From positions 6,882,001-6,946,000 of the forward strand of contig NC_092346.1 in assembly GCF_963676685.1 (NCBI RefSeq): a stretch of 64,000 nt of DNA. The letters are read 5' to 3'. Position numbers and translations under genes: made by a program. A model generated the notes under the pieces. It was not told the DNA's origin and searched no databases. It saw only the letters and a program-made list of their open reading frames with translations. Origin of the DNA: Mytilus edulis (Eukaryota). Positions 15,504 through 54,737 of the stretch are shown piece by piece; the stretch's first letter is position 1, and each line of letters opens with the position of its first letter.

Positions 15504-15516
15504 CCCATTGCTGTAC

Positions 15517-30958: not shown

Positions 30959-31175
30959 ATGGCATCTCTTTCTGTAGAGGAGGAAAACTATGTTCGAATG
31001 AGTTTGTTATTAACTGGAATTTCTCCTCGTGCAGCAAGAACTTTCTTTGATAGTGAATTTGCTCCAGCATGTTTAGAAGCAACAATAAAAAAGGAGTATA
31101 ACAAATTGCTTGACTTAAAAAAGAAGCATAGAATCAACCAATCACAGTGGAACCTTCTGTGTCCTAGATTTCCCG
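30959..31175 (+). CDS. Exon 1 of HEPN-STAND NTPase-ankyrin gene (N-terminal part of DZIP3-like HEPN region)
   Basis: ATG at 30959, MASLSVEEENYVRMSLLLTGISPRAARTFFDSEF...QWNLLCPRFP; donor G|GTGAGT at 31175/31176, phase 1. Confidence 0.85.
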
Positions 31176-33288
31176 GTGAGTACAGAAATTTTTATTTCAT
31201 AAAACAATGTTTACCTTTCCTAGATTCCCAAAAAGTATACACAAAACTGTGCTTTACATGATGTTTATATATATATTGTTATAGCCAAACCTTCTGTTCC
31301 AAAATACTTGTTATTGCAGATAATTTAAATATCCTTTTTCTAGTATCAGTTTTTGTATACGCCCAATTTCAGAACGCATTTTGGTATACCGTTGTCTTTC
31401 CATGTCAGTCTGTACATGTATGTCCTTCCTTTTATCCGTCCCTTCTTACATCCCGAAATCGGTTTCAGTACTCTAACTTTAGTTAGCCTGAACCAAATGT
31501 AATGAAATTTATACAAAATGCTCATTACCACAACAAAATAGCTCAAGTTTTATTTGAGCTGTCATCCCTTTTATAGTTCTAGATGTATGCCCCTTTACCC
31601 TCTCTAACCTTAGTTTGCCTCAACCAAATGCTATTAAAATTATGCACAAAGCTTAGAACAACAAAATACAGATCAAGATTGAATTTTGGTGGCATCACTT
31701 TTACTATTTATTTAGAGTTATTGCTGAATTTTGAGTTTCTGTTCTCTAACTTTAGTTTGTCTCATCAAAATGACAGACAATTTAGACACAATGCTTATAA
31801 CTTAAAAACACAAAGCATGTTTGAATTTTGGTGGTGTTACTTTTACATTTCTAGAGTTAACGTTATGTTTAAGTTGACAAAAAGATATATGAGTAAACTA
31901 AATAGAAGTTTTTTTAAAAAGTTTTATTCTGGAGTGATGAATTTTACATCCCAAATAGGGCAACATTTTACAAAATCGTACAGATTTCAACCAAATAAAC
32001 GCATCTATGGAAACAAAGTGTGCAGGGGTTGACAAACTAAATATTTGTGCAAGATATGTAAAATGCCATAACAAAGATTATGCTAAAAGTTTTTCTTAGT
32101 GGTCGCCTGCTCTCTATATGTTTCCTATCCGATGCAAGAAAGTAATGGTAATTAATCCATTTTCATTTAATTTTCGTCTATAAAATTCAAAATGAGTGCT
32201 ATTAATGTGACGTCATGAACAAAGTGAACTATGTAAAATTTCAACAACCAAAAATTTGATATTGTCATCGTACAAGCAATGATTTATTTTTGCATTGGTT
32301 AACTAATCCTGATTTTGAATTTTTGCCAGAAATTGGGGCCATTTTAGGACTTCATCCAACATACTCCTTTTGCTGTATCTCTAAGCTTTTTCAAATGAAA
32401 GTATGTTTAAAATTAAGATATAGTTTTTCATGCCCTTGCTGAATTGTTCATTTCCGTTTTCTAACTTACATGTAAGTTAGCCTCAACCAAATCTAATGAA
32501 ACTTATTCACAATGCTTAGTCACCACAAAATACATATCAAGTTTGAATTTTGGCAGTGTCACTTTTACCATTCTAGAGTTATGATTTGATGATTTTTTTC
32601 ATTTCTGTTCTATAACTTAAGTTAGCCTCAACCAAATGCTATTATGAAACTTATACACAATGCCTATTTCCACAAAATACAGATCAAGTTCGAATTTTGG
32701 GAGTGTCACTTTTATTGTTCAAGAATTATGCTCTTTATAAATGGAAAAAATTGCTGGATTTTCGTTTTTATTTTCATGGTTCTCTAACTTAAGCTTTCCT
32801 CAACCAAATGTTTAAAACTTAAACATAATACTTATTTCCACAAAACTCAGATCAAGTTCAAATTTTGGTAGAGTCACTTTTACCATTCTTCGGTTATGTC
32901 CCTTTATAACTTTATATGATATGCAAGCAAGGGCATCATCTTTGTTCTGTGGACACATTCCCACTTTGTTTCACAATTGTCTGTAATAACATTATTTATA
33001 GCTAGAACCTATAAATCTCCCTCCCCCTCCTCAAGTCACACTTAGCTGAATATGATACGAAAAGGGAAACACAAATTGTGCTAGCTTATCAATTGCAAGA
33101 ATCATGAAACCATGTTGCAATATTCCGTAATAAGCAATAAAAGTTAAAAAAAAAAATGGCAAAGAATTCAAATGAAATAGTAGCAGCTTTGTTCAAATTT
33201 TTGTTCCTGGCTTTTACAGAGGGTAAACATGTTTGTGAGCATGGTGAGTCCCGGTTATCCGCCTCTGACTAATGGTATTACATGGTAC

Positions 33289-34090
33289 TTTTTAGCTCAC
33301 CTGTCCTTAAAGGGCCAAGTGAGCTTTTCACATCACTTGGCTTCCGTCGTTGTCGTCGTTAACTTTTACAGAAATCTTCTCCTCTGAAACTACTGGGCCA
33401 AATTTAAATAAATTTGTCCACAGTCATCATTGGGGTATGTAGTTTTAAAAATGTGTCTGGTGACCCGACCAACCAAACCAAGATGGCCGTTAGGGCTAAA
33501 AATAGAACATAGGGGTAAAATGTAGATTTTTGCTTGTATCTCTGAAACCAAAGGCATTTAGAGCAAATCTGACACGGGATTAATAGTTTATCAGGTCAAT
33601 ATCTATCTATCAGCCCTGAAATTTTCAGATCAATCGGACAACCTGTTGTTGGGTTGTTGCCCCTGAATTGGTAATTTATAGGAAATTTTACAGTTTTTGG
33701 TTATTATCTTGAATACTATTATAGATCATTGTAGATAGAGATAAACTGTAGACAGCAATAATGTTCAGCAAAGTAAGATTTACAAATAAGTCAGCATGAC
33801 CAAAATAGTCAGTTGACCCCTTAAGGTGTTATTGCCCTTTATAATCAATTTTTAACAATTTTTCGTAAATTTTGTAACTTTTTACACAACACATTTTCCT
33901 CTGTAACTACTGGGCTAAGTTCATTATAGATAAAGATAATTGTAAGCAGCAAGAATTTCAGTAAAGTAAGATCTACAAACACATCACCATCATGGAAACA
34001 AAGTTTTGTGATAAACCCATCTGTGTCCTTTGTTCAATATGCACATAGACCAAGGTGAGCGGCACAGGCTCTTTAGAGCCTCTAGTTTTT
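33289..34090 (+). mobile_element. Helentron/HINE (DINE-1-like) non-autonomous element in intron 1
   Basis: T-run ends; subterminal inverted repeat GCTCACCT/AGGTGAGC; 3' hairpin AGGCTCTTTAGAGCCT; gtc microsatellite near the 5' end. Confidence 0.65.
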
Positions 34091-34288
34091 CGAAACTACT
34101 AAATTTATGTTCCTTTGAATCACTTATTTACAACTGTAATCAATGAACATGATGGACTCACTATACAATTTTTAGGTAAGACTATTTCCAAGTACAATGA
34201 AGTATTGATTTGGCTAAAAATGTATTAATAAACAAACTTGCTATTTGCTTTTACTTTTATAATCTTTATTATATAATGTATTTTCTAG

Positions 34289-34518
34289 ATGTACCAGATT
34301 CTAAAACATTCGACGTAACTTTGATGATACTGTTACTGAGGAATTTGACTCCAATCACCCCTCCTCTTTGTGGGTTTGACAGTTTACCTTCTGCAATAGA
34401 AACCACACCAGCTGCAGACTTAGCAAGGATCAAATACTACAGGAATCACCTGGCTCATTTAGATGATGGCAAACTAGACACAGGGTTCTTCAATACTGCT
34501 TGGAATGATATAACTTGT
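34289..34518 (+). CDS. Exon 2: DZIP3/hRUL138-like HEPN core
   Basis: Acceptor ttttctag|AT completes GAT (phase 1); DVPDSKTFDVTLMILLLRNL...ADLARIKYYRNHLAH contains an R-x4-H HEPN motif; donor TGT|GTAAGT, phase 0. Confidence 0.88.
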
Positions 34519-35749
34519 GTAAGTATCTATATCAAGGTTCATGTAACTAATTGTAGGTCACCTGTCAGTAGATATTTAAAACCAAATTACAAGAAACCAA
34601 ATAGAACTAATTTGCCTTAAACACACTTATGAAATTTATTTTATAGAAAATATATGATTTTGATTTTTGTGGCGCCTGCAACTTTGGTCGCGGAAAATGA
34701 GACACAAGGACTGCTTTTAGGATGACTTCGTCAACAATTGTAAGTTTTCTGCTAAAGTTAGTTTGAAAGGAAATACTTGTGATAGATCATTAATATTTCA
34801 TGTAAAGATGCATTACTATCAGTACACATCAGTTTAACCACTATTTTGAGGCCCCGTCTCCTACTAAGGTCATGGTCTAATGGCTTTGAATTAATTAGAA
34901 ATTAGGTTAATTTGTTTGCTTAACTTAGCTCGATAGGATCTACTTGTGATAAATCAATGGTATCTTGTATGAAGTTGCATTACTATCTGTTCAGGTCAGT
35001 TTGACAACTATTTTGAGGCCCTCTCCCCTAGGTTTCAATAACTTATGAATATTTCAATATTTAGTTTTCTGCTTAAGTTTGTTAAATAGGATCAACTTGT
35101 GATAGAACAATAATATTTTGTAAGAAGTCATATTTTTATCAGTTCATATCAGTTTGACGACTATTTTGGGCACTGTCCCCTTGAACATCATGGACATGGT
35201 CCAGTGACTTTGAATAAATCAGCATTTTTCATGTGGTAGATTATTGATTTTTTATGTAAAGTTGCATTACTATCAGTGCATATCAGTTTGACGACTATCA
35301 TGAGGCTCTGCCCCCAAGGTCATGGTCCAGGAACTTTGAATACTTTACCAATCTTCATTGTTCAGGTTTCTGCTTTGACAGGATCAACTTGTGATAGATC
35401 TATGATATTTTGTAGGAAATCAAATTCAGATAGAGAGGAACTACTTACTATGATTTTTTGTAAAACATTACATTACTGTCTGTACATCTCAGTTTGTGTC
35501 CATAATTTATTATTGTCTCACCTGCAACCGAATTTGCAGAATGCAAGACCAAAGGATGCATATTTTGGTGCATTCGCTTTTGCCACAACAGCAGCAGCCT
35601 TATTAACATGATTAACCAATTTAAAAAAAATGTAAACTTTTATGTCAATATCTTGCTTATTATGCATGTTATGAGGAAAAGGATAGACATGCTGTCAAAC
35701 CAAGATACGTCAATGTGACAAAAAAAAACATTTGACTCATCTGATATAA

Positions 35750-36790
35750 ATAAGAAGATGTGGTATGATTGCCAAATGAGACAACTCTCCACAAGATACC
35801 AAATGAAACAAAAATTAACAACTATAGGTCACTGTACGATACTCGCACCCGCAAAGTGGAAAGGGATTAATATAAGTTGCAAAACTTGTTTCCCAATCCA
35901 CTATAAATAAATATGTTTAAACTAAACTGTACAGAATTCATCAATGAGTAAAACCCATACCGCATATTAAGCTATTAAAGACCCCGAAATGACAATGTGA
36001 AACAATTCCACATGTTCGAATGAGAAAACTAAAGGCCTAATTTATGTATAAAAAATGAATGAAATACAATAGTTATCAAAGGTACCAGGATTATAATTTA
36101 GTACGCCAGACGCGCGTTTCCTCTACATAAGACTCATCAGTGCGCTCATATCAATATATTTATAAAGCCAAACAAGTACAAAGTTGAAGAGCATTGAGGA
36201 TCCAAATTCCAAAAAGTTGTGCCAATTACGGCTAAGGAAATCTATGCCTGGGATAAGAAAATAACAAATATCTAACACATACAAACAAACGACTACCACT
36301 GAATTACAATCTCCTGACTTGGGACAGGCACATACATAGAGAATGTGGCGGGGTTTACATGTTAGCAGGTTCCCCATCCTCGACCTAACCTGAGACAGTG
36401 GTATAACAGTACAACATAAGAACGATTATAAAAACCTTAATAAGTCAATGTGACAAAAAAAACATTTGACCCAACTGATGTCAATATGAAGATGTGGTAT
36501 GATTGCATATGAGACAACTCTCCTCTAGAGACCAAATGACACAGAAATTAACAGCTATAGGTCACCCTTCGGTCTTCAACAATGAACAAATTCCCTACCA
36601 AATATTCAGCTATAAAAAATCTCAAAATCACAAATGTAAAACATTTCAAAAGAAAAACAAATATGTTTCACACAAACAAATGACAACCACTGAATAACAG
36701 GGTCCTGACTTGGGACAGGCACATACATACAGAAAGTGGTGGGGTTAAACGTTATGTTAGCCAGATCCCAACCCTCCCTATAACCCTAAA
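35750..36790 (+). repeat. Abundant short interspersed repeat family (aagatgtggtatgattgcc..gagacaactctcc / cctgacttgggacaggc)
   Basis: Two copies here; related copies at 5420-5670 (-), 45300-45480 (-), 38240-38510 (+), 47485-47860 (+). Confidence 0.7.
36103..36146 (-). ncRNA. Minimal type I hammerhead ribozyme motif, partly degenerate, in an interspersed repeat
   Basis: Minus strand: gcgca-CTGATGA-gtcttatgtagag-GAAAC-gcgc-GTC-tggcgt. Confidence 0.6.
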
Positions 36791-37192
36791 CAGTTTTGAA
36801 TTTTTATATTGGTGGTGTCACTTTAAATTTTTTGCTGGATTGCTCACTTTTTCATTCTAACTGATCTTGAGTTATGCATATTAAGAACTGGAAAAAAATC
36901 TTTCGTCAGCTCTTTTACTGTTGTATGCACTGACTAAACATTTCATTTCCATGCTCAAAAGTTTAAATGAGATATTAGAATATGACCTTGACCTCATTTT
37001 CACCATGGACTTTTAATCAATAGACACTAAATCTCTTTCATTTACCTTTTTCATTTATGTTTAAGATATGCCATATATTACTGGTTTGTTATTTTGTTTC
37101 GGAGTAATGCAAGAATTAGGCAGACCCGTTTTTGAACCTGCAAGCTTTATTGTAGTCATTTACAGTAATAAGTATCATCCTTTATTTTGCAG

Positions 37193-37487
37193 GCTGTTGA
37201 TAGATTGGGTGGGCAGCAAACGAAGCAGGAGTGTGATCATCTCAAAACAAAACCATTAGATCAAACCAACCAAGAAATAATGATGGACATAAAACATTCC
37301 AATAATGAAATCCGGGAACTAAAAGAATCATTTAAAAGTTTGATAATATCGCATGAATTACTGCAAAAACACCATGCTGAAGTGAAGAAATCCCATGAGA
37401 CATTACAGGATGACCATAGGAAAGTAACACAAGAAATGGAAACAATAAAAACTTCACAGAAGGATACTGTACCATGGAATATAAGAG
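37193..37487 (+). CDS. Exon 3: end of HEPN region plus coiled coil
   Basis: Acceptor ttttgcag|GCT (phase 0); AVDRLGG...NNEIRELKESFKSL...KVTQEMETIK heptad-like; donor AGAG|GTAAAC, phase 1. Confidence 0.85.
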
Positions 37488-39420
37488 GTAAACAGTTTGA
37501 AGGGACTTGGGGTACATCTTCTCAATATATTTTGTGGGATTTCTGGTTGGTAAGAGGTAGAAACCTTTGGATTTTTAAATTAATCATAATGTCAAATCAG
37601 GCAATTTAGTTTATATTGCGTCAGCTTTTTGAGACTGTTTATACCTTTATGGTTGAGTCTATGGATTTTTTTTGGAAAAAAAAGTTTGTTTCCAGTTTTT
37701 AGAGAAAAAAAAATAATTTGTTGTTTTCACCCTCAGCCGCCACTATATGTAGTGCTAAAATTAAAAGAAAAAATTGTTTTCAACTTTTTGCCAAAAGGTA
37801 GATTTTTTTTCGCCAGAGGCAGAAAAAAAATTTGTCTGGGAAAATAAACAAAGCCCCCCCCCCCCCCCTTCCGAAAAAATCAAATGGTTGCTGCCTTATG
37901 TTAACATTATTTTTACCCTCTGGTTGTTCAGTTAAATTTTCAGATATATATACTTGTTAGCAAGTGTTATGTCACAACCTAACCTTCAACAGTTTTGTAA
38001 TATTACAAAGTAATAACAACCTGTAAACAAATATTTGAAAATGAGTTGATTCATTGTATTGGTATTATCCACAAATACAAATTGGCATAAGACACAGTAT
38101 TACTAATCTGAGAGTAGTCAAAATTTATGAAAGCCCTCTCAAAGAATTAAAAATGATGCTCCCTAGACATATAACACACACGAAATCTAATAATAGTTAT
38201 TGACTGTATATATGACCATACAGGATTTTAATTAGATAGTAATAAAATTGAGAATGGAAATGTGGAATGTGTCAAAGAGACGACATTGACCATAGAACAG
38301 ACAACAGCAGAAGGTCACCAATAGGTCTTCAATGCAGCGAGAAACTCCCACACCTGGAGCGTCCTTCAGCTGGTCCCTTTACAAATATCTATACTAGTTC
38401 AGTGATAATGGACGTCATACTTAACTCCGAATTATACACAAGAAACTAAAATTTAAAATTATACAAGACTAACAAAGGCCAGAGGGTCCTGACTTGGGAC
38501 AGGCGCAAAAATGCATATTTATACATGTTTTAATGTATTGATAACAACACAAATGAAGTACTGAATAATACAGTATTCAAATATCTTAATCGTGTCAGTT
38601 AATTAACAGCCTTTCAGAAAAAGTTGATTAAATGGCTAACAAAAACACAAAAGACACAATGTACAGATCTGAACAAGGATTTGTATAGTGAGAAGGATTG
38701 GAATCTCGCGGTATCTCATTAGTTCTCGCGTATCGTGAGAAGTCGTAAACTCGCCACTTATACCATGATACTCGCTTGTATTGTAAATATCCGGTTTTAT
38801 CGCTTGGTTAACAACGTTATGAAAATACACATGGTAAGCTACGATCTTACGATCTTTTTACGATATTAGTTTTGTGTAGACTTACCGATAAAACAATTCT
38901 TATTTCTCTTAAATTACAAAGCGATAATTACCTAAATAGATCAAAAGGAAAAGTTGGCGTTTATAAAGTTTGTTTGTGAAATTTTCGTATTAAAATTAAA
39001 TTAAGTTTGTAAATTTGATATTCATCCCGGAAAAAGATAAAAAATATTGAGTTTTCCCCCTCATGTGACCGCAGTTTTGGTAGTCATTTATTATCTTCAT
39101 AATAATCATTTACTCAAAGAGGAAGATGAAATAATTATTTGATTGTCACAGCTTGTTGTTTGACTTTCTGTTTTTTTAAATAGTTCTTTGTTTTTTATTA
39201 ATTATGCAAGGAACTGTTTGTAATTGAAATATACTTTTGTGGTGATTAGATTAATTAGTGAAGAATATATATAATTAAATAAATTACAACCTTTAATCTC
39301 AAAACATAACATTTAATTTAAAAAAAAATCAAGATGATTAATTAAATGAAGTCTTTGATCTCAGTATCAGAACAAGCTTAGATATATTATAAAATGGAAT
39401 ATTTAGTTATCAACTTTCAG

Positions 39421-40683
39421 TTCAAATTATTATTCAATGTTACAACCATGTCAGATTTTTTATCCTGGGACCAAGATATTGACCTTGATCTTTTGTTAGG
39501 TGAATATACTGAGTATGATCCAGAACCCAGTGACAGTGATGAAGAATGTTACATTGCCAAAAAGAAAAAGTCTGAACCTGTACCAGATACATGTATTAAA
39601 CCTTCATACACTTGTCCTGTTTGCAAAAAGACTCTGAAAACAATTTCAGGCTTCCGTGGTCATGTCCAGAAACAACATGGACAGAATTTGAGAGCAACAG
39701 ACCATCGCACACATGCAGATAGTAAACTACCTAGCACAGTCCGTGACGCCTTAAATGAAAGTTCATTTGCTGAAATATTCCCTACAGCTTTGCAGTCCAG
39801 TTTGTCCAACATTGCTAATGATCCATTTACCATCAATGACAGCATAACAGACATTTGCAAATTTGTGAGCAATTCAGCAGTAGTGCAAGACATTTTGTTG
39901 AAATATTTTCAGCCGATATTTGTTGAAACTACAATCAACATATCTTCCTCATGTGACAAAGAGCAAATGTTTCGCCGTTTACACATAAGTAGAGTAAAGC
40001 CAGAATTGACAAACACTTTTCACTCGCATTGTCCATCTCACTCATTGAACCATACCAACTTATTCCTACAGATGGTACATGAGGATATTGTTGGTGAAAT
40101 TTTTAAAGTTCAAACAATGACAGCTGTTCAGAAATCAACATCAAATCAGGAAAAGTTAACAGAAAATGACCAAAGCATTCTGTATTATATTGCTGGTTAC
40201 ACCATTCGTGCCCTACAGAAGAGATACACCAGGTACTCTACTAAGAAGTTGTCCGTCATAAATAAATTTACAGACAATTCTTCAGGTGTTAACTTTGTGA
40301 AACAATATGACAAGTGGTATAAGACACAAGACCGTGGTGGCCTTCAGAAACCATCAGATTCCCTGTTCTTATTAATCCGTGAATTAGAGACAATTATTCG
40401 CAAAACAGTTGAACCTTCATATAGTGCTAGTTCGCTTCTTATTGATCCTTTAAAAGAAGCTATGATGGAAGGGTTCATGGTAAAACATTATTGTGACATT
40501 CTTATGCAAGGTGAAACTGCAGATATTGTGTCAGCTATAACTGAAGACATCATTCATTTGTTTTTAACCATCCGTGGCTTTGCTGTTACTCGTATAGAAC
40601 GCAATAAACTGACCAAGAAAGCAAAATCTCAACCCTCATCCAGTCTAAGACAAGCCTTAAAGGAGAAATCTTTAAACTGTTGA
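39421..40683 (+). CDS. Second transposon gene: C2H2 zinc finger plus P-transposase C-terminal-domain-like region
   Basis: Intact ORF; YTCPVCKKTLKTISGFRGHVQKQH (C2H2); LYYIAGYTIRAL...DRGGLQKPS...IRELE. Acceptor actttcag at 39420; a candidate upstream exon ends ATG|GTAAGC at 38833/38834 in frame; alternative start ATG at 39448. Confidence 0.82.
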   Translation, partial: FKLLFNVTTMSDFLSWDQDIDLDLLLGEYTEYDPEPSDSDEECYIAKKKKSEPVPDTCIKPSYTCPVCKKTLKTISGFRGHVQKQHGQNLRATDHRTHADSKLPSTVRDALNESSFAEIFPTALQSSLSNIANDPFTINDSITDICKFVSNSAVVQDILLKYFQPIFVETTINISSSCDKEQMFRRLHISRVKPELTNTFHSHCPSHSLNHTNLFLQMVHEDIVGEIFKVQTMTAVQKSTSNQEKLTENDQSILYYIAGYTIRALQKRYTRYSTKKLSVINKFTDNSSGVNFVKQYDKWYKTQDRGGLQKPSDSLFLLIRELETIIRKTVEPSYSASSLLIDPLKEAMMEGFMVKHYCDILMQGETADIVSAITEDIIHLFLTIRGFAVTRIERNKLTKKAKSQPSSSLRQALKEKSLNC

Positions 40684-42346
40684 CACTGTGACATTTAGTT
40701 TTGTTCTGTTCATACATGAAATATAATTATTTAAATTGTTTCCACATGATCTTGATGTAACTGTTGTATGAATATTTAAAAAGAGTGAAATGTGTAAATG
40801 TCTTTTTATTTATTGTCTTTCATAACACTGCTTTACAACTACTACTGAAAGAAAATTTAGCTGCAATCCAACTACAAAACTTATCTCATACGGCCTACAC
40901 TAAACAGGAACAATATAAGGTCTTCAACAAATGAGGGACGAAATGAATTTATTTGTATCCACGACAACCATCAATATTCTGTCAATATAAGATAATAAAT
41001 AAGAACAATTGTGGTACTTAAACCTAGCACATCAGGAGCAAAACAAAGAAATATGACAAATATAAATACAATTTTGGTGTCAGAACATTGAACTCTGGTG
41101 GATAGTTGTCTCATTGGCATTCATACAACTCTTATTTATATATCCTTGTCCCTTGGATTCTTGTCTCATTGGGAATCATGTATCATTTCTTATGACGACC
41201 ACAGCAAAACACAGGAACTCATGAACATGAATTGAACACTACTAAAGTATCAGGGACACATACAATTATATGTACATGTATGTAAATTTATCCAGGATAG
41301 CTTTTAATAATAGAGATTTGTTCTTGCTGAAAGTTTTATTTTCACACAACAAAATTCACAATATCAAATTATAAATCAAGCATGTGACAAACATTGAACG
41401 TTTTCTAACTCTCTCAATTTCTACACATTCATATAACAATGAAAAAATTTTGTACAAATATAGATTGGCGCAATAAAAAAAACAACATCATATATTACAC
41501 GTTATACACAATTTATTTCACATATTTTTTGTTTCAAAAACTACATACCTTAATTACCTTTTTAGACAGAACCATGCGAGAGAAAAAACACTTCACTAAT
41601 AAGCATGTTTAAAAAAAAAGTGTTGAATATTTGTTCCTGTATCTTTGAAATTAACATTGAAAAGTTAGAAATAATTAATTATCAAATGCATAAAGATTTA
41701 TGAATTACTATTTACTGTATTGAGTATTGTATCTGGTCCAAAAACAAAAAATCTTTCATATAAGGTAAATATTATGATGACAAACATGACAACATGAAAT
41801 ACATGTAGGAACACAACAAATAATCACAGACAGTGTTGTCTCAAATTTGCACACACAAGATACATGTACAACATTGTACAATGCATGTTAGTAAAAAATT
41901 TCCATACCCCACCAGACAAAGAAAAACTCTATCAAATGCAAGGACTCAACTAAAATTCAAAACTTCGTCTATTTTTATAACTTTTTAGTGAACCCAATTA
42001 CTGAGAACAAAAAAATAAATATTGAAAATTGCACCCTTACAAATGTTTTCTCAATTTCATAAGCATCAACCTGACCAATGGTTAACTAAGACTATTTTTA
42101 GTTTAAGTACTATAAAGGATACCTGCAATCATACGTGTACAATTGTACATACATGTATGTACCATATGCATGTGTACATTTCACCTTTCAAGTTTACATG
42201 AAAATGTTTACAAACTACCAAACACTCATATACTGCTATTAGAATTGCATAAATAATACATTATTTGGAAATAAATACATATGACAAGTATACATCATGT
42301 ACATGTAAATTAAACTTGTACAAAAAGACTTCCTGCATTATTTACA

Positions 42347-45019
42347 TTAAAATGTTTTGCGCTTTGGTAGCGAAGTGTTATCAATCACAAAGTTCCTGTC
42401 TCTCTGGTTACTGACATTTCCTCGTTTGGGTGCCAAAGCTTGAGCTCCAACCGCTCTCATGGAGGTCATCATATGACGAACATCATTCACTGTAGGGTTG
42501 TTATTGTCCCCAACCCTGTGTCGGTAGTGTCCAAAATGTTGCTCCAAGGGATCTTGGTTAAAGTGATGTGTGAGGACAAACTTTGCGCCAGATTCTAATA
42601 GAAATTTAACACAGTCTACAATTGAAAACACACTGATTTTAAAACCTGTCAATGTTTGATGACTCAATTGCATTCCTTTGCGTTGTTTCCTTGAAAAATT
42701 ACCAGCTCTTTGCATCACTGATTGTTCCCAGGAATCAAAGTACTTAATAAAGTCTACTCTCAACCACTGTAATCTTTCATCATTGACTGTTGTGTATGGA
42801 TCAAGGTCAGGATTTCTCTTATTTCTACCTTCATATAAGTTTCTTACATTCAAACAATCAAAAAATTTGTTCATAATTCTGATGAAATTAACTGTCTCGG
42901 TTACATTATCTCCATACATCATTTCAAGGGCATTCGCTACTGTGGAGCTCAAAACTTGTGCTGCAATGTTGACTTTCATGCAACCGTAGGTTGTCATGTC
43001 AAGGTGACTTCTTGTCAATTTAGGACACGGACTGTACAGTGATAGTTCACAATGGTCTTCAAACAATTTCAACAGATGCATCCACGAAATATCTTTTCCA
43101 TCTTTCCACATTTTTCTGGTGTTTTTGTGGGAATATGAATTGCTGAAACAGTTTCTAGTTGTTTTCACAAGATGGGGAACATCTGAGATGAAATAAAGTT
43201 TTCTTTCGTCATCGGCATAAGGATTGGTTGTGTAATGAATAAATTCATTCACCTGTCCATGAATGTTGAAGAACTTCCTATTTGCAGATGCGCCATCACA
43301 AGTCAGAAAGAGTACTTTAAGTTGAGCAAAGCCGGTCTCTAAAATGCGAATAGCCTTCCAAATAATAGGATAAAGATAATCAGCAGTAATACTTAAGGTA
43401 GCAAAGCCTGCTAAAGGGAATTTCAAGTCTGTTGCAACACCTCTCACCATTAACACAAGCATGTATTTGGCAATGTCTGCATCTGTTTCTGTAGAACTTG
43501 TATCTTTCATACTTCTTTCAAAGTTCATTATCTGGTTTCCGACCTTATCTAGATTGCAATAACCAATTAGTTCGCCACTATGTTTATCATACACCAAGTC
43601 TGATTTAACCTTGATTTCGTCGAACAAAAGTCCTACATAATTCTTCCAAGGATCAACTGTACTGTACATATCTCTTTTCGAAGCCTCACTTTTCAGTTCT
43701 TTCACTACATCTGGCAAAAAACCATTGTCACTTTTAGTATAATGCGAATAATCGAATAATGTCCTTGAACTTGGAAGAGTAATGAAACCCGAATCTCTTA
43801 AAGCCTCGTAGGCAGCACTTGATTTGTGACGCAAGTACAGACACCATCTTAGTATCATTGGGTGCCATCGCATACCCTTCAATGACTTCACATTCGTGCT
43901 CTTTTGTTGTTCTGACCAGACAAGGCGTTGATAAGAATTGGCATCAGGAAAGGCTTTCATTATTTCAGTTGTACATGCTGCCATTGTATCTTGCATTTCA
44001 AGTGTCTGACTGAAGTCTAATGTTACACCTTTACTGCTAACCTCACGTTGAAACTTCCGTTGAGTTTTGTCAATTTCACTCTGTAGGGTTGTTATTCTGT
44101 CTTTCTGCTGGTGAATTTTTGTAATTAGTTCAGTACGGGACATCTTGGTATGTCCTATAGTGCTGTGTAAATAGTTTGGTATGTTTTCCTTACTTTTTCT
44201 CTCTTTTTCTTCTCGTCTGTGTTTTCTACTTATCAGCACTCTTCTTAATTGTGTACAGGGTGAACATCTGTTTCCCTGCACAAGTAGTAAACAGTTCATG
44301 CTTCTTACAGTTGATGAATAGGAAATGGTACCTTTCACTGCTTCAAAGTCACCTTCTCGAAAACCTTGGCTACTTGCAGAACCTTCTGCGCTCTCGACAG
44401 ATGTGCCCACTGGTATAAAAGACATTAAATCTGCCTCGAAATTTCCTGTACACACAGAATAACTTTGTAATTTCATAAGTAATGTTTGGATGTGTTTAAC
44501 ACTGTCAAAAATTCTTGGTAAACCGATCCATAGGTCATGGTCTTAGCTGAGCTGGATTCTGTGTACAAATACTTTGGCAAAAAAATCTCTATTTATCATC
44601 ACATTTAATTTAACAGATATTCTTTCAGCGGACGGATATAAAAGCATTATCTTGATTGAATCACTGGTTGTATCTAAAACATATGGTGAACTGATGCAAC
44701 CACTCTGGACAACATCTTGCTTAAGTTTATCGAATGGGTCTGTATATGATGATGTCACACATTCGGTTTCCTCTATCATGTCTATAGCTACTTCTTCTTG
44801 ATAGGAGGTACATTCTATGTCCTCTACAGGCTCAGCAGTGTACAAAGTAAAGTCAGGGTCAATCCTTTCTCCACGCACTTCTACTTCTTCTTTTAGACAT
44901 AATTGCACTATGTCCTCGTTTGGCATACTATAAGAATGGTCATTGTGCAAGTCAGTAGATTGGACTTTTTTACGCTTTCTCTGTGAAGGAACATCCCTCC
45001 TTTTCCTTAACTTTGGCAT
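42347..45019 (-). CDS. P-element/THAP9-like DDE transposase, about 890 codons, with one in-frame TAA at 44545-44543 (probably disabled)
   Basis: ORFs 44543-45079 and 42347-44476 share a frame (…HRIQLS*DHDLWIGLPRIFD…MKLQ). Motifs: RWHPMILRWCLYL..KSSAAYEALR..LPSSRTL, LLFDEIKV (D), TCDGASANR (D), DVPHLVKTTRN (GTP-binding insertion), FNQDPLEQHFG (E). Acceptor ttaatttgcag|A precedes ATG at 45019. Confidence 0.88.
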
Positions 45020-45847
45020 TCTGCAAATTAATAAAAACAGAATTGTTAGTCTAATTTTCACAGCCAATTGGGTTGGCATATATATAGCATGTAAAGTTAT
45101 GGTTAAAAAGGTTAATATTGATTTTATTTTTAAACCTAACTAATTTGCCTAATGAGGTTTCCCTTAGTTAGGGTGTTCTTTTTACATTTAGTCTTGAGCA
45201 ATATTCTGACTTCAACAATGAAAATTTAAGAAAATCTTAAGTTGTTGTTTGTTTATCATGTTTATGGGTTAAATAATTGTTTTTCGTTATTTAATATTTA
45301 AGGCCGTTAGATTTTTGTTTGAATTGTTTTACATTGTCATTTCGGGGCCTTTTATAGCTGACTATGTGGTATGGGCTTTGCTCATTAGTGAAGAACGTAC
45401 GGTTACCTATAGTTGTTAATTTATGTGTCATTTTGGTCTCTTGTGGAGAGTTGTTTCTTTGGCAAACATACCACATCTTCTTTTTTTATATTTAGGGTAG
45501 GTTAGGCTATTATTATAGAGACTAAAAAGTAGGGTTGGCAGGGTAATTGGAACCACACATGATTTTTTTTATTTGGCCCTTAAGTTCTACACATGTCAAT
45601 TATGTTGTTTGCCTAAAAAAATACTGACCTACCAACCCAACCCTGTCAGGCCTGTAAGGCATAGGTAGGCAACAACTAACATTTTTTTTCTGAAGGTCAA
45701 CTTTCAAAATTAACAATAAAGAAACATATAACTACATCCTTAATGAAGGGGGATAGGACTTTTATCTTTTTAAACTGTGGATTGACCCTTTCAGGATGTC
45801 AGAATTTGTTTTTTAAATGCTGGCCCTCAAGATTTAGTGTTTTTAAG

Positions 45848-45998
45848 CATAGGCGTATCCCGGGCCCCCCCTTTCGTGGGAAAAATTTGGTTGATTATAT
45901 AGGGAATCATTGAAGCATGACTGGAGCCCCCCCCCCCCCCCCCCCACTTAAGTCAGTCAGCGGGCCCCCCCTTAGGAAAAGTTTTGGATCCGCCACTG
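45848..45998. mobile_element. 151-bp GC-rich MITE nested in the P element
   Basis: CATAGGCGTATCC...GGATCCGCCACTG; 5-bp TSD TTAAG; related partial copy at about 63010-63128. Confidence 0.65.
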
Positions 45999-48900
45999 TT
46001 AAGCCCAGGATTTCTGGATCAGGACCCCTCCTACCCCCCACCTTTTGTTTTTAGATTAAAAGTGCAAACCCTAGCACACTTACATATTACATTATTACAT
46101 TGTATGGTTGTTTGACCTAATAATAATTTAAAATTCTTATTCAGCTTCATGACTTTTATGCCTATTTGGTCAAATTCTCATGCATTACAATTAGAATTTC
46201 ATGTAATCTGATAATTTCTTTTATTCTTTACCGGGTTCATTAATGAATTTCAGTGTAATATTACCTCCTTCTTTTATCATGTATGACTATTCTTTATAAT
46301 TTGGCACCCCATTGTTTCCTATTTTACCCAAGCATAACTTTGATCACTAATTATTATTTCAATTCTCAAATTTATTAACCCCATTTAGACCCTCTTTTGT
46401 AATAGGGGAAAACAAAGGTGGTAATACCCCTATATGTACAGCATAATACCATCTGTTGCTTTATTAATACACAGGGTATTATTCAAAAGATACATGGAAA
46501 TCCTGGGTACAGATAAAGTGTCTCAGGTAAATTGTAAGGCACATGTGCCTCAGGAACATAACATGTGTTTGACAAATTTCTTATTTGATTTTACTGTGGA
46601 CAAGATACACTAATCCATATAAACTTAAAAAAAAGGATAAAAAAAATGTAACAACCAGACATGCTAAATGAACTTAATATTAATACAAATATAAATGACA
46701 CTTTTCAATGCATTTACAAAAACTAGTCTCGTAACCTCAGTTCTATCAGGAGCAGATCCAGCTATTTTTAAAAGGGGGTTACAACTTGAGTCCCATGTCT
46801 TGATCAGTCCAAAAGAGGTCAATGTCTATATAGAAATGACTCCTTTATTTATGAAGTAAACTGCTGTTTTTTACATATGCACAATGATATATACATGAGT
46901 AACATGATATGTGAGATTTGGGCTTCAGAATTAAGAATTACTTCTGGTAGGCTTGTTTAAACTATATCATGATCAATACCTTGTCTTGTCATATAGTGGT
47001 AATACAAAACTTTTAAAGTTTTGCCATGTTCCATGGGTAATTGAAAACTTCATGGAATAACTTACAATGCATGAATCCATGATGCAGTAATTTATACATC
47101 TATATGGGTTGACAATTATTTACTGACAATTTGACAAATAGCACATTTAAAAAGATTGCTAGAAAAATATTTCATCTTTCTTTTTCCTCATGCTAACAGA
47201 CATGACAGAGCATAATATTAAAGTATAAATTCTATATACATGTACGCCCGGAATATATACTGAGTGTGTCCATCTTAAAATAATAGCTTAGTTGAGTACT
47301 AAAACCACTAATTATTATAGTATTTATATTGATAAATAAAGATTTCAGTCACAACTTCAGGATGTTAGATAAGTATACAGTACATCCAAAAAGGAGCAGT
47401 TCCTGTCTTTTATGTTGTTAACTTTTTATCCATAAGTGGATTGTTTTGTCATGATGGGATATTTTTCTTTGCCGATTTCAAAGGTAAAATTGAGAATGGA
47501 AATGGGGAATGTGCCAAAGAGACAACAACCGGACCATAGAAAAAAACAACAGCAGAAGGTCACCAACAGGTCTTCAATGTAGCGAAAAATTCCCGCACCC
47601 AGAGGCGTCCTTCTACTGGCCCCTAAACAAATATATACTAGTTCAGTGATAATGAACGCCAATCTAATTTCCACATTGTACCCAAGAAACTAAAATTAAA
47701 ATAATGCAAGACTAACAAAGGCCAGAGGCTCCTGACTTTGGACAGGCGCAAAAATGCGGCGGGGTTAAACACGTTTGTGAGATCTCAACCCTCCCCCTAT
47801 ACCTCTAGCCAATGTAGAAAAGTAAACGCATAACAATACGCACATTAAAATTCAGTTATATACATAAAAATTGTCTTGTCTCTTATTCATACACTGGACT
47901 GAACACAAAAAAAAAAACCATTGACCATTGAATCATGAAAATGAGGTTAAGATCAGATGAATATAAATTCCATGTGTTAAGTAGTCGGTGTACTGTACTT
48001 AAGCATAATAGTAAGAAAGGAAAATATTTACCTGGCTATTATCTACACAAACTTTTTCTATCTTCAGAGGGCTGTATATACTACGTAGGCTCAAGAAATC
48101 TTGAAATATGAAATCTGAAATTGAAATATGCAATTACTTCATGTACTTAATGGAAATGTTACAGAAAACAGTTTTTGTTTGAACCTGTCCTAAGTCAGGA
48201 ATATGATGTACAAGTGTACAGTAGTTGTCGTTTGTTTATGTAATTTATATGTGTTTCTCGTTTTTCATATAGATAAGACCGTTGGTTTCCCCGTTTGAAT
48301 GGTTTTAAACTTGTAATTTACACATTTGGTTATCCCAAAGTAGTTTCTAAATTTATTCAGACAATTAAAGTTATAACTGTAAACTTGTAAACAGATGGAT
48401 CAACTTACATACATACATGCAAACTCTTAACATATACAAAAACATGTACATACTGAACACGTAAATCAAAACATAGCAATTGAACAGCAACTTGAGACAA
48501 ACTTAAAATTTGCAGACTGTCCTTTCTGTTTTTTACATCAGCTTGTGATTTTGTTTAGTTTTTCACCATAATGAATTTCAGACTTAACGAATGTTTGCCA
48601 GACTAACAAGCCATAAAAGCAGTTTTTCTATGTCTCTTAATTTATTTGGCGGTCCAAGGATCTGTATAGCGAGAAAAATCCTTGGTTCGTTAGATTTTTT
48701 TAAGATGAATATTTTAGACTAGGTTTAAGTCGTAGCACTAGCTTGTTCTGGTAGAAAATTGAAGATTGTGATGTTCGGATGAACGTGCATTTTCCAATTA
48801 TTCAATAATGGTATAGAGGCATTTTCCAATTATTCAATGAAGGAATAAAGGGGGGGGTGTTCAAATGCCAGCTGCGCTTCAGCACAAACATGTGCACCTT

Positions 48901-49066
48901 TCTTTTATCATTTCAACACTGGATTATACCTTCAGCTTGTTGTAGTCTCTTTCTGATTAATATTTTTATTTATATACATGTTCTTGAATAATTTTATTTA
49001 GAGTTGGACCAAGGATTTGTATAAAATGTCGTATAAAATGTAAATAACAACAGACAAAACATGAGC

Positions 49067-49217
49067 CAGTGGCGGATCCAGGGAGAGGGTTCCGAGGGTT
49101 GGATTCCCCCATTTCTTTGGACGATCAATGCATTTGAATGGGGACATATAGTTGGAACCCCCCCCCCCCTGTCCCGGGTTAGGAACCCCCTTTTTTAAAT
49201 GGCTGGATTCGCCACTG
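49067..49217. mobile_element. 151-bp GC-rich MITE nested in the P element
   Basis: TIR CAGTGGCGGATCCA/TGGATTCGCCACTG; 5-bp TSD TGAGC. Confidence 0.7.
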
Positions 49218-50295
49218 TGAGCGGTCTCTGATTTCAGAGTTCTTTTACGGACATTCTGATTCACCCATCTCCTACTAGTAAGTAAGTCAGTAAGTAATGA
49301 CTTTATTTAAAAAGGGTGACTCAATTAGCTTTCGCTTATCTACCTTGAGGCCCTCACAAAGAACAAACAGTACAAATATTACGAAGCTTTCTAACATATT
49401 ATGATACTCCTGAAACCTTTGTAACAGATCATTAATAATATAATTCTAGTAGGAAGAAATTCTCACCATAGTTATAGTAAACACAAAAAGAAGCAATATG
49501 AAAAAGGGTAATTATGTCATAATATGACTGCTTACAAGTGCTTCTCTCCGACCTCTAGGGGACATACATTTGTACATGTATGCACAATAGGCCGTTTTAA
49601 AAGATATAATTCTGTTGAGAAATACAGTACCTTTGTTGTTAACATCCAATTTAACACAGAAGCAAGTATAGATGTAAACATTTCCATCACGTTTTCTCAG
49701 AAAATTCGAGATCAAGGAAGTTAATTTATGTTAATTTGATCCCGCCCATAATGACAACATTTGGATGCATCTGGTGACCGTAGTGGTATTTTAAAACGAT
49801 GATAATAGCACACGTTATCAATTTACAAGCACTTTTTTTTTTAAAGAACACCAAACAAACTATACTTAAATGAAATAATTACGTTTCATAGCTGAAATCG
49901 ACAAAATGAGATACTTTATTGATTTTATCTAAGCCCATCCTACTTTGCACTGACGCGGAGCCATTTTGGACAGGTCGGCCTGAAACATTCATCAAAATAG
50001 CAACAACCAAAGCACCTTTCACCATATTATTTGAACTGTTCACGTATCAAACACATTTATTTCATATTATTAAAGTTTTTTCACATAATTCCTCATTTTG
50101 AAGGAGGAGATTGAACTCAAAGATGGGGTTTGGACAGCCTTTTTGGGCGGGATTATGGCGATGATCAGGAGAAAATATGCATAGTCAATTTAGCTGTAAA
50201 TAATGCGTATTGTAACGATGTTAATTGATTTCTTAATCTGAACTGACATAATATTACATATAAAAGTATCATTATCATGCAAATATATATATTAT

Positions 50296-50430
50296 ACTTA
50301 CAATAGGCTGACTTTAATCTTGATGCGACACGAATTTAACTGTTAATGGATGACATAAAACGACAAACGAGATGCATCACGGTTAATCTCGTCAAAATCT
50401 CGTATACGCAGCTTTTTATATACAGCCAAT
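50296..50430 (-). promoter_or_regulatory. Candidate transposase promoter and first non-coding exon just inside the right TIR
   Basis: Minus strand reads ATTGG, then TATATAAAAAG (about 50422-50411), then donor GTAAGT at 50301-50296. Confidence 0.4.
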
Positions 50431-52407
50431 GCAAACTGCTCGCGAGATTCCAATCCTTCTCACTATACAAATCCTTGATCTGAAGTACTTGCAGTTACTT
50501 AATGCTAGTTCAAATCCAATAACATCTTATACAAAACAAATGTTTCTAAGACAAATAAATCAATCAGTATACCACCAAAATCTTTACAAGGCATACATGT
50601 ACATGTCCTTTAGACAACCTTCTCATAACCTTTACCTCAGTTCAAAGATCAGTAATCCACATAAGTTTTGTTGATAAGCTCTGATACTTAGACAAAAAAA
50701 AATGAACCAGTCAATATTGATTTTGTATGTAATAATAATATAGTAATACAACAACGATATTTGATTTTGAATCAATAAGAAATATGTAAGTTGTTAGTTA
50801 TATTGATATCTTAGTTCTGATGAAGGAAAATTCAGAACAGCCGTATAATGGTATGACCATGTTTTTCTTCGTTGTCGTCAGAAGCCATTTAGCTTCCTGA
50901 CAATATCTGAAGTCTAAAAGTGTAAGGATTTTTGAGGAATTGTACCACAAGCTTTCATACTACAAATAAAGATTGGTATTGATTTTGGGGTTTATGCCCT
51001 GGCTGTGTTGGAAAATAGGGACAAACAGGGTGAAGAAAGCATTCATCTTGTTTCAGAGCAGTTACTTGAGTATAACTTATGTATTCAAATCTATAAAACT
51101 GTACCACAATGTTCCATTCCAAAATGGACGTGTGGGATTGACTTTTGTGGGAAATGTCCTAACCGTCTAGGGTGTATGGTTACGGGTACCTATTTCAATG
51201 TGATTTAATTCAAAGTCTTGAATTTTTGGTGTTCTTCAATATGGCGAATCTAGCTGTATTTAGATTGTTGTTGTGGCCCCATTTAAAAAAATGGTCAAAC
51301 TTGAGGTCGAATGGGTTCAAAATTAAACTTTGCTGGATTTGATAAAAAATGGAATTATTGGAGTTCTTTGGATGTGCTGATTCTTACCGTGCTAAGATTT
51401 TTTTTATCTTGTCTGTGAAGAAAATCAAGATAATCAACATAGGTATTGCTTTTCTTGAAACGACAACAGGGTAAAAAGTTGTTAAGTTTTCTGCTAAAGT
51501 TGGTTTGATAGGAACCAGTTACAATAGGCAACCATATTTTCTATGAAGTTAACATTAAGATCAGAAAGTCCAAAATTGATTTCACAAAAATTGAAATCTT
51601 GGTTTTTTTTCGTATGCTGAAAAATAAGCATGTATTTATCTTTTTTGATATTGGCCCAGTTTTCGAATTGGTACAAATCGGTGTCTAAAATTAAACTTAG
51701 TTTGATTTCAACACAAAAATTAAAAGTATGGGAATCTTTGATATGCTGAATTTAATAACTTCTATGTTGGATTTTGGGCCCTGTTATCAAATTGTTGCAC
51801 ATTGAGATCCAAGCTGAAACTTTGTTTGATTTCATAAAATATAGATTTTTTTTTTGTGTGATATGCTGAATCTAACCATGCTAACCATATATTTAGATAT
51901 TGCCATTATTGGACAATAATAGGTTAATATCCTATTTCAAATATTTTAGTTCTTCGACCATATTCATTCTGTGTCAGAAACATATATATATATATATATG
52001 CTGCATCAAATATACTCACTATCCTAATTCAGAGCTGTATCTAGCTTGAATGTTGTGTCCATACTTGCCCCAACTGTTCAGGATTAAACATCTGTGGTCG
52101 TATCAAGCTGTGTCATGAGAAGCATTTATTTAAACCTATTACAAATATATTGTCACTGTTCGGTCTATGAGAAAACTGATGCATACTAAATGCATATTAC
52201 AAACATTCCAAGAAGAAATTTGAAAAGAAATAAAAACTAATTGACAACAATATATTCCAAGAATAAAAATGAGATTTGTGAATTTCAACATAGTGCACCA
52301 TTGATAATGACAGATATGTTAAACCCTTAAAAGTGTAGACCAATCAGTTATATTGATCAATTAATCGTTTATTTATTTTTATTTATATTCCAAAATTCGT
52401 CTTTCAG

Positions 52408-54737
52408 CAAGAAATGAACAATTACTCAAAAACTGGAAGGACAGTGATGATAAGATGTTTGTTAATACAAGAGCTGCAGAGCATATTTTCAAATGCATAA
52501 AGGAAAACAGTTGTGTAACTATAACAGCTAATTCTGGTGTAGGGAAGACAGCAACACTGAGACATGTAGCTTTACAAATGGTAGAAGAATATGATGTACT
52601 TGTGGTCACAGAGCCAGGTGACATTCTGAGGTATAACAATCCAAATAAGAAAACATTGTTTGTTGTTGATGATTTATGTGGAAACTTTTCGCTGGACCAG
52701 AGTGACATTAAATGTTGGGAACCAATACTAAAAGATATAAGACAAAATCTTGAAAAAAAACAAACAAAAATACTTGCAGCATGTCGGTTACAAGTATATC
52801 AAGACGAAACGTTTGATTCTTTGTCAGTTTTTAAGTCATGTGTATGTAACATGTTATCTAAAAACATTTGCTTGTCAAAACCGGAAAAAGAATTAATAGC
52901 TAAGTTGTATCTCAATGCAAAAGCCTCTGAGATAAGTGACTTTTATGATATTTATGACTGTTTTCCTCTTTTATGTAAACTGTGCCATGATAATTCAAAA
53001 CTTATTATTACAGATTTCTTTCAAAATCCATTTTCAATTTATGAAGCAGAGATTGATAAGTTTCTAAAGAAAGGGCATCACGCTAAATACTGTGCTTTGG
53101 CTTTATGTGTCATGTTTAACAACAAATTAAAGGAAGAAATGTTAACAGAAGAGTTGAATGAACAAACTAGGGCTATTATAGAGAACACGTGTGAGGCATG
53201 CAGATTAGACAGGGGAACATCACGACTTGTATTACAAGATGAACTTGACTCACTTACACATACATTCATAAAGAAAGAAAAAAATGTTTACAAAATTTTA
53301 CATGATAAGATATTTGACTTTCTTGCTAAGATATATGGCAAACACATGACATATTGCTTGATAAGGAATGCAGACAGTGGTTTAATCAAGGAACGATTTT
53401 TATTAGAAACAAAAGATAACATGGATCCGTTTATTACTGTAGTACCTGCAAAATATCATCAGATGTACATACAGAGAATGATTGATGACTGGTCAAATGG
53501 AAAATTACAAGATGTATTTAGTAACATCAATATGAAGATACCTCAGTTTAAACAGAAATTGCTATGCTATTTGAAAACACTAGATATATCCAACCAGACA
53601 AAACTGGCAAATATCTGTAATGAACATGAATACTTATTAAAAAACAGTTGTTCACGTTATATATATATATTTGATGATGATGATGATGATTATGAGGTTG
53701 AGGAGGATGATGATGATGAGGAGGAGGATTATACCTATGAATATACCTATGGAACTTCTTTATTGCATTGTTGTTATTTAGGTGATATGTCATTTGTCAA
53801 GTGGTTGTTAGACAGAGGAGCGGACTGTAATAAATGTGATAGATATAACGCGTCACCTGTAATAACCGCTTGTCAACATGGTCATACCGAAATAGTTAAG
53901 ATTTTGTTAGACAGAGGAGCAGACTATGACAAATGTAATAGTTTTGGTTCATCAACTTTAATGATGGCTTGTAAACATGGTCATACAGAAATAGTAAAGA
54001 TGTTGTTAGACAGAGGAGTAGACTGTAATAAATGTGATGAAAATGACATTTCACCTTTAATGAAGGCTAGTCAACATGGTCATATAGAAATAGTAAAGAT
54101 GTTGTTAGACAGAGGAGCAGACTATAATAAATGTGGATGGTTTGGTGAGTCACCTGTAATGAAGGCTTGTGCACATGGTCATACAGAAATAGTAAAGATG
54201 TTGTTAGACATAAGAGCAGACTATAATAACTATGGAAGGCATGGTGAGTCACCTTTAATGAAGGCTTGTGTAAATGGGCATATAGAAATAGTAAAGATGT
54301 TGTTAGACAGAGGAGCAGACTTTAATAAATGTAACAGGTATGATGAGTCACCTGTAATGGAGGCTTGTAAACATGGTCATATAGAAATAGTAAAGATGTT
54401 GTTAGACAGAGGAGCAGACTATAATAAATATGGAAGGCATGGTGAGTCACCTTTAATGAAGAAGGCTTGTGTAAATGGGCATATAGAAATAGTAAAGATG
54501 TTATTAGACAAAGGAGCAGACTATAATAAAGGTGATAATGATGGTCAGTCACCTGTAATGATGGCTTGTGAATATGGCCATACCGAAATACTGAGAATGT
54601 TGTTAGACAGAGGAGCAGACTGTAATAAATGTAATGGACAGGGTCAGTCAGCTTCAAAGATTGCCTATGAAAGAGGAAACAAAACTATAATTGATATGAT
54701 TCATCAACATACCAGTCAGAAAATAGTTCGAAATTGA
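52408..54737 (+). CDS. Exon 4: STAND P-loop NTPase (nSTAND3-like), acidic linker and about 10 ankyrin repeats
   Basis: Acceptor ctttcag|CA (phase 1) in frame with ORF 52455-54737; Walker A ITANSGVGKT, Walker B LFVVDDLCG; ankyrin consensus SPLMKAC..GHIEIVKMLLDRGAD; stop TGA ends at 54737. Confidence 0.92.
53748..54710 (+). repeat. Tandem 99-bp ankyrin-coding repeats (about 10 units including caps)
   Basis: Recurrent ggtcata(c/t)agaaatagtaaagatgttgttagacagaggagcagact at about 99-bp spacing. Confidence 0.92.

Follow-up and report, generated by a model that had tools for sequence, protein, structure and literature searches.

A HEPN-nSTAND3-ankyrin gene of Mytilus edulis: a candidate NLR-like RNase receptor from a large mussel family

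DZIP3-type HEPN domains are known from fusions with ankyrin repeats, CARD and NACHT, they are expanded in oyster, and an RNase L-like action has been proposed for HEPN-NACHT proteins (PMC3710099). More than 50 HEPN-NACHT proteins have been counted in the pearl oyster (PMC9646362), and others occur in corals (PMC8260672; PMC10236652). The idea of a HEPN-STAND immune RNase is already published as a prediction for the HEPN-NACHT proteins (PMC3710099; PMC9646362; PMC8260672). Homodimers are typical of HEPN proteins (PMC12165695), and SAMD9 has been characterised as an animal STAND protein with an RNase of its own (PMC10246899). Bacterial Avs5 has nSTAND3 as its NTPase (bioRxiv 10.1101/2025.07.08.663546), and the domain is counted in work on NLRs with near-identical repeats across all domains of life (PMC13449251). 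Here we analyse a gene of the mussel Mytilus edulis which encodes a HEPN domain, a likely coiled coil, an nSTAND3 NTPase and an ankyrin array in one chain. It lies in a stretch of 64,000 nucleotides of contig NC_092346.1 (positions 6,882,001 to 6,946,000), referred to below as the window.

A HEPN-nSTAND3-ankyrin family was not found in our literature search, from which the PMC9646362 and PMC13449251 supplements were excluded and in which subscription papers were mostly outside reach. Among the nSTAND3 papers listed none was on bivalves, the available text of five further papers (PMC8195603; PMC13581612; PMC7773633; PMC11817969; PMC8229355) gives no description of such a family, and one supplement of PMC3710099 holds no match for the architecture. 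We found no printed account of the Avs5-type NTPase, of the variable ankyrin sensor or of the size of the family. A first-pass annotation, made from the letters of the window, had noted that such architectures lack functional characterisation, and the literature searched agrees.

We consider it likely that the protein, one of at least 93 HEPN-nSTAND3 pairs in its genome, is an intracellular NLR-like immune receptor, in which the ankyrin repeats would bind a ligand, the STAND domain would oligomerise and the HEPN domains would pair into an RNase. The steps beyond domain identity are ones we infer. The ligand of the variable repeats would be a protein that is foreign or altered self, and its binding would relieve an autoinhibition exerted by the repeats. 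Nucleotide exchange and then STAND oligomerisation would follow, as expected from STAND biology, and the coiled-coil stalks would help to join two HEPN half-sites into an active RNase, as expected from HEPN biology. RNA cutting would stop translation or kill the cell; as substrate we would guess at host tRNA or rRNA (translation shut-off or cell death) in preference to direct cutting of viral RNA.

The gene model is firm. The four exons and uninterrupted 1023 residues first proposed stand as they were: all three introns (3113, 2674 and 14,920 nucleotides) are GT-AG with phases 1, 0 and 1, the 3072 coding nucleotides contain a stop only at their end, and XP_071160488.1, an 'uncharacterized protein [Mytilus edulis]', matches at 1023 of 1023 residues. 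That record probably derives from the same DNA, and therefore supports the gene model rather than expression. A Mytilus galloprovincialis protein aligns in register, with 96% identity in HEPN, 97% in the coiled coil and 93% in STAND, and the junction of exons 1 and 2 rests on homologous proteins. An assembly or splicing artefact was rejected; judged by its sequence, it is the reading frame that is intact. Upstream, at 29374-29547, is a degenerate 80% duplicate of the exon 1 start region which ends after about ten codons and is common to paralogues L001 and L003.

Pfam profiles support the three domain calls of the earlier reading in effector-STAND-sensor order, with HEPN and nSTAND3 above their curated cut-offs. 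HEPN_DZIP3 (PF18738) spans residues 38-177 (E 1.9e-36; 125.5 bits against a cut-off of 27; profile positions 3-142 of 144) and nSTAND3 (PF20720) residues 265-416 (E 8.1e-23; 81.3 bits against 27.2; positions 1-153 of 155), ahead of the ankyrin array. No NACHT (PF05729), LRR or kinase domain was found in the 1023 residues by Pfam at E 0.001. NCBIfam gave no match for the HEPN domain, nor for a 638-residue homologue used for modelling.

The predicted RNase half-site, RNHLAH, is intact, as the first-pass annotation had said. Among HEPN-bearing homologues its R and H are each present in 61 of 61 and its N in 60 of 61, while the residues between R and H vary freely; the motif has the form expected of HEPN RNases, a conserved Rx4-6H with a polar residue after the R. 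This active-site pattern counts against the view that the family are immune sensors whose HEPN domain is non-catalytic, an RNA-binding or signalling module like the CARD of sister proteins (see below), as does its occurrence in oyster, where 194 of 202 DZIP3-HEPN proteins have it (PMC9646362). That view draws on the CARD swaps and CARD-HEPN fusions on the same NTPase, on subclades with K in place of the motif R or without its H, and on the non-nuclease or RNA-binding helical proteins, for example Roquin, among the top structural rows; we regard it as unlikely, though not negligibly so. The HEPN model had no Foldseek match at E 0.001, and a homodimer prediction for residues 1-172 in two copies scored 0.27 against a mark of 0.32. 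Between HEPN and STAND the homologue model has a single 67-residue helix, a likely coiled coil, over which all Pfam coiled-coil matches were below threshold.

The NTPase has the features of a STAND switch, in which helical and winged-helix domains come after a P-loop domain. Walker A and Walker B had been claimed, and both are present and conserved; the Walker A reads A-x-x-G-V-G-K-T, with Lys in 118 of 120 homologues, and its first residue is Ala family-wide (106 of 120), distant members having Gly there. Downstream are a conserved Arg374, which we take to be at the sensor-1 position of STAND proteins, a conserved FPL at residues 433-435, and an LHD at 545-547, which resembles the MHD/LHD motif of NB-ARC proteins; in terms of STAND motifs, FPL would be of xxP type and LHD of xHD type. 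The 638-residue model (predicted local distance difference test 90.4, predicted template modelling score 0.57) contains HEPN, the long helix, and P-loop, helical and winged-helix domains. Its fold matches, between E 4e-5 and 7e-4, include NLRP3, NOD2, an archaeal STAND protein, Apaf-1, SAMD9, Avs5 and Avs4, with other AAA+ proteins, e.g. ORC and RuvB, matched as well. The best matches of the models are NACHT/STAND folds and, tentatively, HEPN folds. By sequence, an ankyrin-free homologue had nothing under E 0.1 among solved structures, and with the full profile all 60 of the matches listed were ankyrin proteins. PADLOC gave no Avs model match and only PDC-S73 (E 1.9e-9, over the NTPase), while a search for close relatives in prokaryote genomes gave 37 pattern matches and confirmed none, by a method too strict for distant bacterial relatives. 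An acidic linker before the ankyrin array was considered as a family feature and rejected, a run of at least six D/E occurring in only 7 of 78 homologues.

The gene belongs to a large family, and the bivalve expansion that had been suspected is borne out by the pairs in this genome and by oysters sharing the layout. Own-genome searches returned 341 candidates with the HEPN exon, 470 with the STAND region and 651 with the Pfam HEPN model; the best 150 matches were listed for each search, so that the pair counts are lower bounds. Among the 150 STAND matches listed, 98 are preceded on the same strand by a HEPN exon at a distance of up to 60 kb (at least 93 distinct pairs), against 25 with one downstream and 4 with one on the opposite strand. 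An open frame of at least 600 residues without stops is present in 72 of the 98, and frames are short or stopped in 32 of the 150. Fourteen STAND matches lie in tandem clusters within 4.5-7.1 Mb of contig C3. All named rows among the 120 near homologues listed are from Mytilus; a longer search extended to oyster proteins of 26-29% identity, four of seven of which have HEPN, nSTAND3 and ankyrin, and a profile search gave 521 clusters at 1e-30. The nearest paralogue (G000:C3:7014308-7029400; L001, L002), 100 kb away, has the same four exons and a body 93-95% identical. Another copy, L013 (G000:C3:6505862-6507457), has an internal duplication of most of STAND and the helical region in one open frame of 1240 residues. 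STAND-exon open frames elsewhere reach 3810 residues (G000:C7:93002568 and others), which suggests very long ankyrin arrays.

The ratio of non-synonymous to synonymous substitution (dN/dS) against 8-12 paralogues was 0.18-0.21 in HEPN, 0.20 in the coiled coil, 0.24 in STAND and 0.32 in the last helical part. At about 0.2, these sequence comparisons indicate that HEPN and STAND are under purifying selection among paralogues. The effector can be exchanged: CARD replaces HEPN on nSTAND3 in 5 of 26 relatives picked for unmatched N-termini, all Mytilus and four with ankyrins (P0169, P0187, P0191, P0212 and P0274), and three proteins (P0136, P0140, P0141) have both CARD and HEPN on nSTAND3. In a FastTree tree of 122 rows, chosen from 241 with full STAND, CARD members stand at several places inside one subclade; no topology test was made, so that we claim swapping but not its order or count. 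The models of P0020, P0127 and P0128 also contain Roc or Ig domains, and are possibly fused gene models.

The expansion might alternatively be neutral or selfish, with the protein in a non-immune housekeeping role in RNA processing or as a scaffold. Ankyrin arrays can grow by unequal crossing-over alone, and human DZIP3, known as an RNA-binding ubiquitin ligase, would suit such a role. Against it stand features that mark immune receptors: tandem clusters in which genes arise and are lost quickly, exchange of effectors, and a binding face that varies on a constrained body. We give this alternative very little weight.

Variation is concentrated on the predicted sensor. By a motif count, which misses degenerate units, the window gene has 9 ankyrin units, the nearest paralogue 35, seven others 7-15 and two truncated frames none. 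Among 84 regular units of 123, entropy peaks at repeat positions 2, 3, 5, 10, 13 and 14; positions 2, 3, 5, 10, 13 and 33 have been randomised as the binding surface (PMC4308713), whose numbering we assumed, from the consensus, to equal ours. On a spanning tree of units, single-base changes at the six published positions were 143 non-synonymous to 17 synonymous, compared with 306 to 152 at the remaining positions (p 9e-9, or 2e-6 when the long array is left out; 0.16 for the window gene alone). The proportion of non-synonymous differences at these positions was 0.114 against an overall synonymous proportion of 0.101, with 84 multi-base codon changes excluded. A first dN/dS on ankyrin positions was discarded as circular, the positions having been chosen from the same data. 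Taken as sequence statistics, these figures are suggestive of relaxed or positive selection at the ankyrin surface. Repeats within an array are 81% alike in nucleotides in the window gene and 86% in the nearest paralogue; in amino acids the values are 0.65 and 0.70, by our own measure rather than the T-REKS Psim for which the NLR class threshold is 0.70. Units 3-6 of the window gene match units of the nearest paralogue at 92-94%.

Similar repeats, hypervariable sites and differing array lengths are also features of fungal NLRs of high internal conservation (PMC13449251), and infectious tumour cells have been put forward as something that may trigger other immune proteins of bivalves (PMC8195603). 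These points would fit an RNase receptor directed not at microbes but at self/non-self or damage, as in allorecognition or the detection of transmissible tumour cells or transposon proteins, comparable to fungal HET-type NLRs. In such a receptor the mechanism would be the same and the trigger alone would differ; we think this version improbable.

On the wider scale, it is a tentative proposal, and one we hold to be somewhat less than an even prospect, that mussels hold at least 100 Avs5-type (nSTAND3) receptors whose shuffled ankyrin arrays, resembling designed ankyrin repeat proteins (DARPins), serve as a recognition code diversified in the germline and coupled directly to a HEPN RNase or to CARD, and that these receptors are a principal basis of the specificity of intracellular immunity in bivalves. 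As part of the same tentative proposal, such a repertoire may be for animals what pattern-recognition nucleases are for bacteria and variable-repeat NLRs for fungi.

Whether the window copy itself works is a separate matter, on which RNA and the third intron bear. An 839-nucleotide contig from an RNA run (X11) aligns as three pieces (34288-34518, 37193-37485 and 52406-52676; 14, 12 and 13 differences) with joins at the predicted sites, and RNA contigs overall splice exons 2-3-4 at those sites with about 95% identity to the window gene. Contigs of two further runs, whose RNA label is a guess, stop at the exon 4 acceptor with tails of exon 3 type, one of which is identical to the end of the window gene's exon 3. 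These two runs have no cover on an intronic bin, which an unlabelled, DNA-like run does cover. Depth on the exon bins is below 0.2 in two sets of raw RNA reads, of which about 6% and 18% were read. In the nearest paralogue the last 32 bases of exon 3 are the same as in the window gene, and it has the RNA letter at six of the seven sites listed. The junction of exons 3 and 4, on which the earlier reading depended, is therefore established for members of the family and not for the window copy.

Intron 3 is long because it contains an 11,804-bp P-superfamily DNA transposon, a feature absent from the first-pass annotation. The element has perfect 37-bp terminal inverted repeats (38674-38710 and 50441-50477) and is flanked by a 7-bp target-site duplication (38667-38673 and 50478-50484). 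Its transposase frame has one in-frame stop (44543-44545), and a second gene is convergent to it; RNA-run contigs cover the transposase region. Matches to the end of the terminal repeat lie at 106 genomic sites, against none for a control, the 7-bp duplication recurs at four of five other copies checked, and copy L021 has an open transposase frame of 930 residues with the same second gene. This is probably a two-gene transposon family that was recently active. Without the transposon, intron 3 would be about 3.1 kb, close to the 3.6 kb of the nearest paralogue, and exons 3 and 4 therefore belong to one gene; a two-gene chimera across intron 3 was rejected, the paralogue having the same four exons.

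The insertion looks recent, its terminal repeats being perfect; the RNA contigs mostly differ from the window copy, and many paralogues have decayed. All this would suit a functional family in which the transposon silences the window copy or disturbs its splicing and the copy is drifting to a pseudogene. The intact frame and splice sites and a dN/dS to the nearest paralogue of about 0.2-0.27 speak against it, and so, weakly, do one 127-nucleotide contig piece with 0 differences from the window gene against 2 from the paralogue and a 257-nucleotide piece with 7 against 13. We judge silencing rather unlikely, but deserving of serious consideration. It concerns the window copy, and so is compatible with reading the family as immune receptors. 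Coordinates are collected below.

Table 1. Features of the HEPN-nSTAND3-ankyrin gene and of the transposon in its third intron (window positions)
Feature	Position	Strand	Basis
Exon 1, residues 1-72, first half of DZIP3-type HEPN, phase-1 donor	30959..31175	+	gene model, Pfam
Exon 2, residues 73-149, HEPN core	34289..34518	+	PF18738 E 3.5e-21; ends agree with RNA contig X11 record 9
R-N-x3-H motif RNHLAH, residues 124-129, predicted RNase half-site	34441..34458	+	homologue alignment
Exon 3, residues 150-247, HEPN end and coiled-coil stalk	37193..37487	+	gene model, RNA contig
Long helix, likely coiled coil, residues 173-239, between HEPN and STAND	37262..37462	+	model of 97% identical homologue region
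P-superfamily DNA transposon, 11,804 bp, in intron 3	38674..50477	-	terminal repeats, target-site duplication
Second gene of transposon, 411 residues, weak C2H2 zinc finger	39448..40683	+	open reading frame, Pfam; same frame in copy L021
Transposase frame, TNP-like RNase H and GTP-binding domains, one in-frame stop	42350..45139	-	open reading frame, Pfam
Exon 4, residues 248-1023: nSTAND3 NTPase, helical and winged-helix domains, acidic linker, ankyrin array, stop	52408..54737	+	gene model, Pfam
Walker A, A-N-S-G-V-G-K-T, residues 288-295	52527..52550	+	homologue alignment
Walker B, LFVVDD, residues 331-336	52656..52673	+	D335 in 117/120 homologues
Arg374 after strand 4, conserved	52785..52787	+	117/120 homologues
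LHD, residues 545-547, winged-helix region	53298..53306	+	H in 111/120, D in 103/120 homologues; model
Acidic linker, residues 670-688	53673..53729	+	run of at least six D/E in 7/78 homologues
Ankyrin array, 9 units by motif count and cap-like end	53745..54701	+	motif count, Pfam

Elsewhere in the window there are broken, reverse-transcriptase-like retroelement fragments at 55387-56530 (minus strand; weak RVT_1 match, E 0.015), 14658-15221 (plus) and 25614-25928 (plus), degenerate arrays of a 35-bp tandem repeat at 59725-62299, and an exact 300-bp duplicate (23352-23651 and 24321-24620). Inverted-repeat elements at 3713-4159 (154-nucleotide arms, 92%) and 15516-15718 (99-nucleotide arms, 97%) probably resemble miniature inverted-repeat transposable elements.

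The window gene is ordinary inside its family, and the interest lies in the family, which is larger and more receptor-like than a reading of the sequence by itself could show. How invertebrates achieve broad yet specific intracellular recognition is an open question, which a constant enzyme and switch with a variable ankyrin face make testable; the bodies of paralogues are 95% identical and the ankyrin face is easily modelled. If the preferred reading is true, the family would be a second animal STAND-RNase type beside SAMD9, would give a first activity for DZIP3-type HEPN and would extend the Avs5-type NTPase to animal immunity, with relevance to disease resistance in farmed bivalves.

Among described systems, the HEPN-NACHT proteins of pearl oyster and corals share the same HEPN family N-terminal to a STAND NTPase, an intact Rx4H, a lineage-specific expansion and a predicted antiviral or apoptotic RNase role (PMC9646362; PMC8260672; PMC3710099). 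The window protein differs in having nSTAND3, with no NACHT match at E 0.001, and in its ankyrin sensor, where the oyster proteins show LRR, TPR or WD40 and the main text describing them is without ankyrin (PMC9646362). Avs5 (Sir2-nSTAND3-TPR/PPR) has the same NTPase family, the effector-STAND-repeat order and an enzyme effector in the same chain. Avs5 defence requires both Walker motifs and a conserved Arg (bioRxiv 10.1101/2025.07.08.663546), and the matching residues are conserved in the mussel homologues; the predicted fold of the homologue also matches Avs5 and Avs4. The mussel protein is nevertheless not an Avs5, with HEPN rather than Sir2, ankyrin rather than TPR/PPR, and a spliced animal gene family.

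SAMD9/9L is likewise an animal STAND protein with an RNase effector; its C-terminal half keeps it autoinhibited, and virus infection activates it (PMC10246899). In fold it is matched at E 2.6e-4. Its nuclease is not HEPN and its sensor is not ankyrin. By analogy, SAMD9 is the best working precedent for the window protein. SAMD9/9L is a family of one to two genes, against about 100 variable mussel receptors. RNase L is activated by dimerisation and senses 2',5'-oligoadenylate (2-5A) through a conserved ankyrin surface. It too joins a HEPN-superfamily RNase to ankyrins in one animal protein, as ankyrin-pseudokinase-KEN/HEPN (PMC3710099), but in reverse domain order, with a kinase-like domain in place of STAND and with KEN, another HEPN family, so that the window protein falls outside it.

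Fungal NLRs of high internal conservation (such as HNWD/HET-E and NACHT-ankyrin) resemble the mussel family in joining an effector, either an enzyme or one that causes death, to a STAND module and to repeats which vary in number and are almost the same except at a few hypervariable positions (PMC13449251). They differ in their NACHT or NB-ARC NTPases and other effectors, the main text being without HEPN (PMC13449251), and the mussel repeats are less alike (65-70% in amino acids). Compared with the canonical animal NLR (NACHT-LRR), the window protein lacks NACHT and LRR, has an ankyrin sensor, and would be NLR-like in its working at most. Membership in canonical NLRs, Avs5 or RNase L was rejected on domain content and order; what the protein does share with the NLRs is the broad tripartite layout, an effector-STAND-repeat order with an exchangeable effector.

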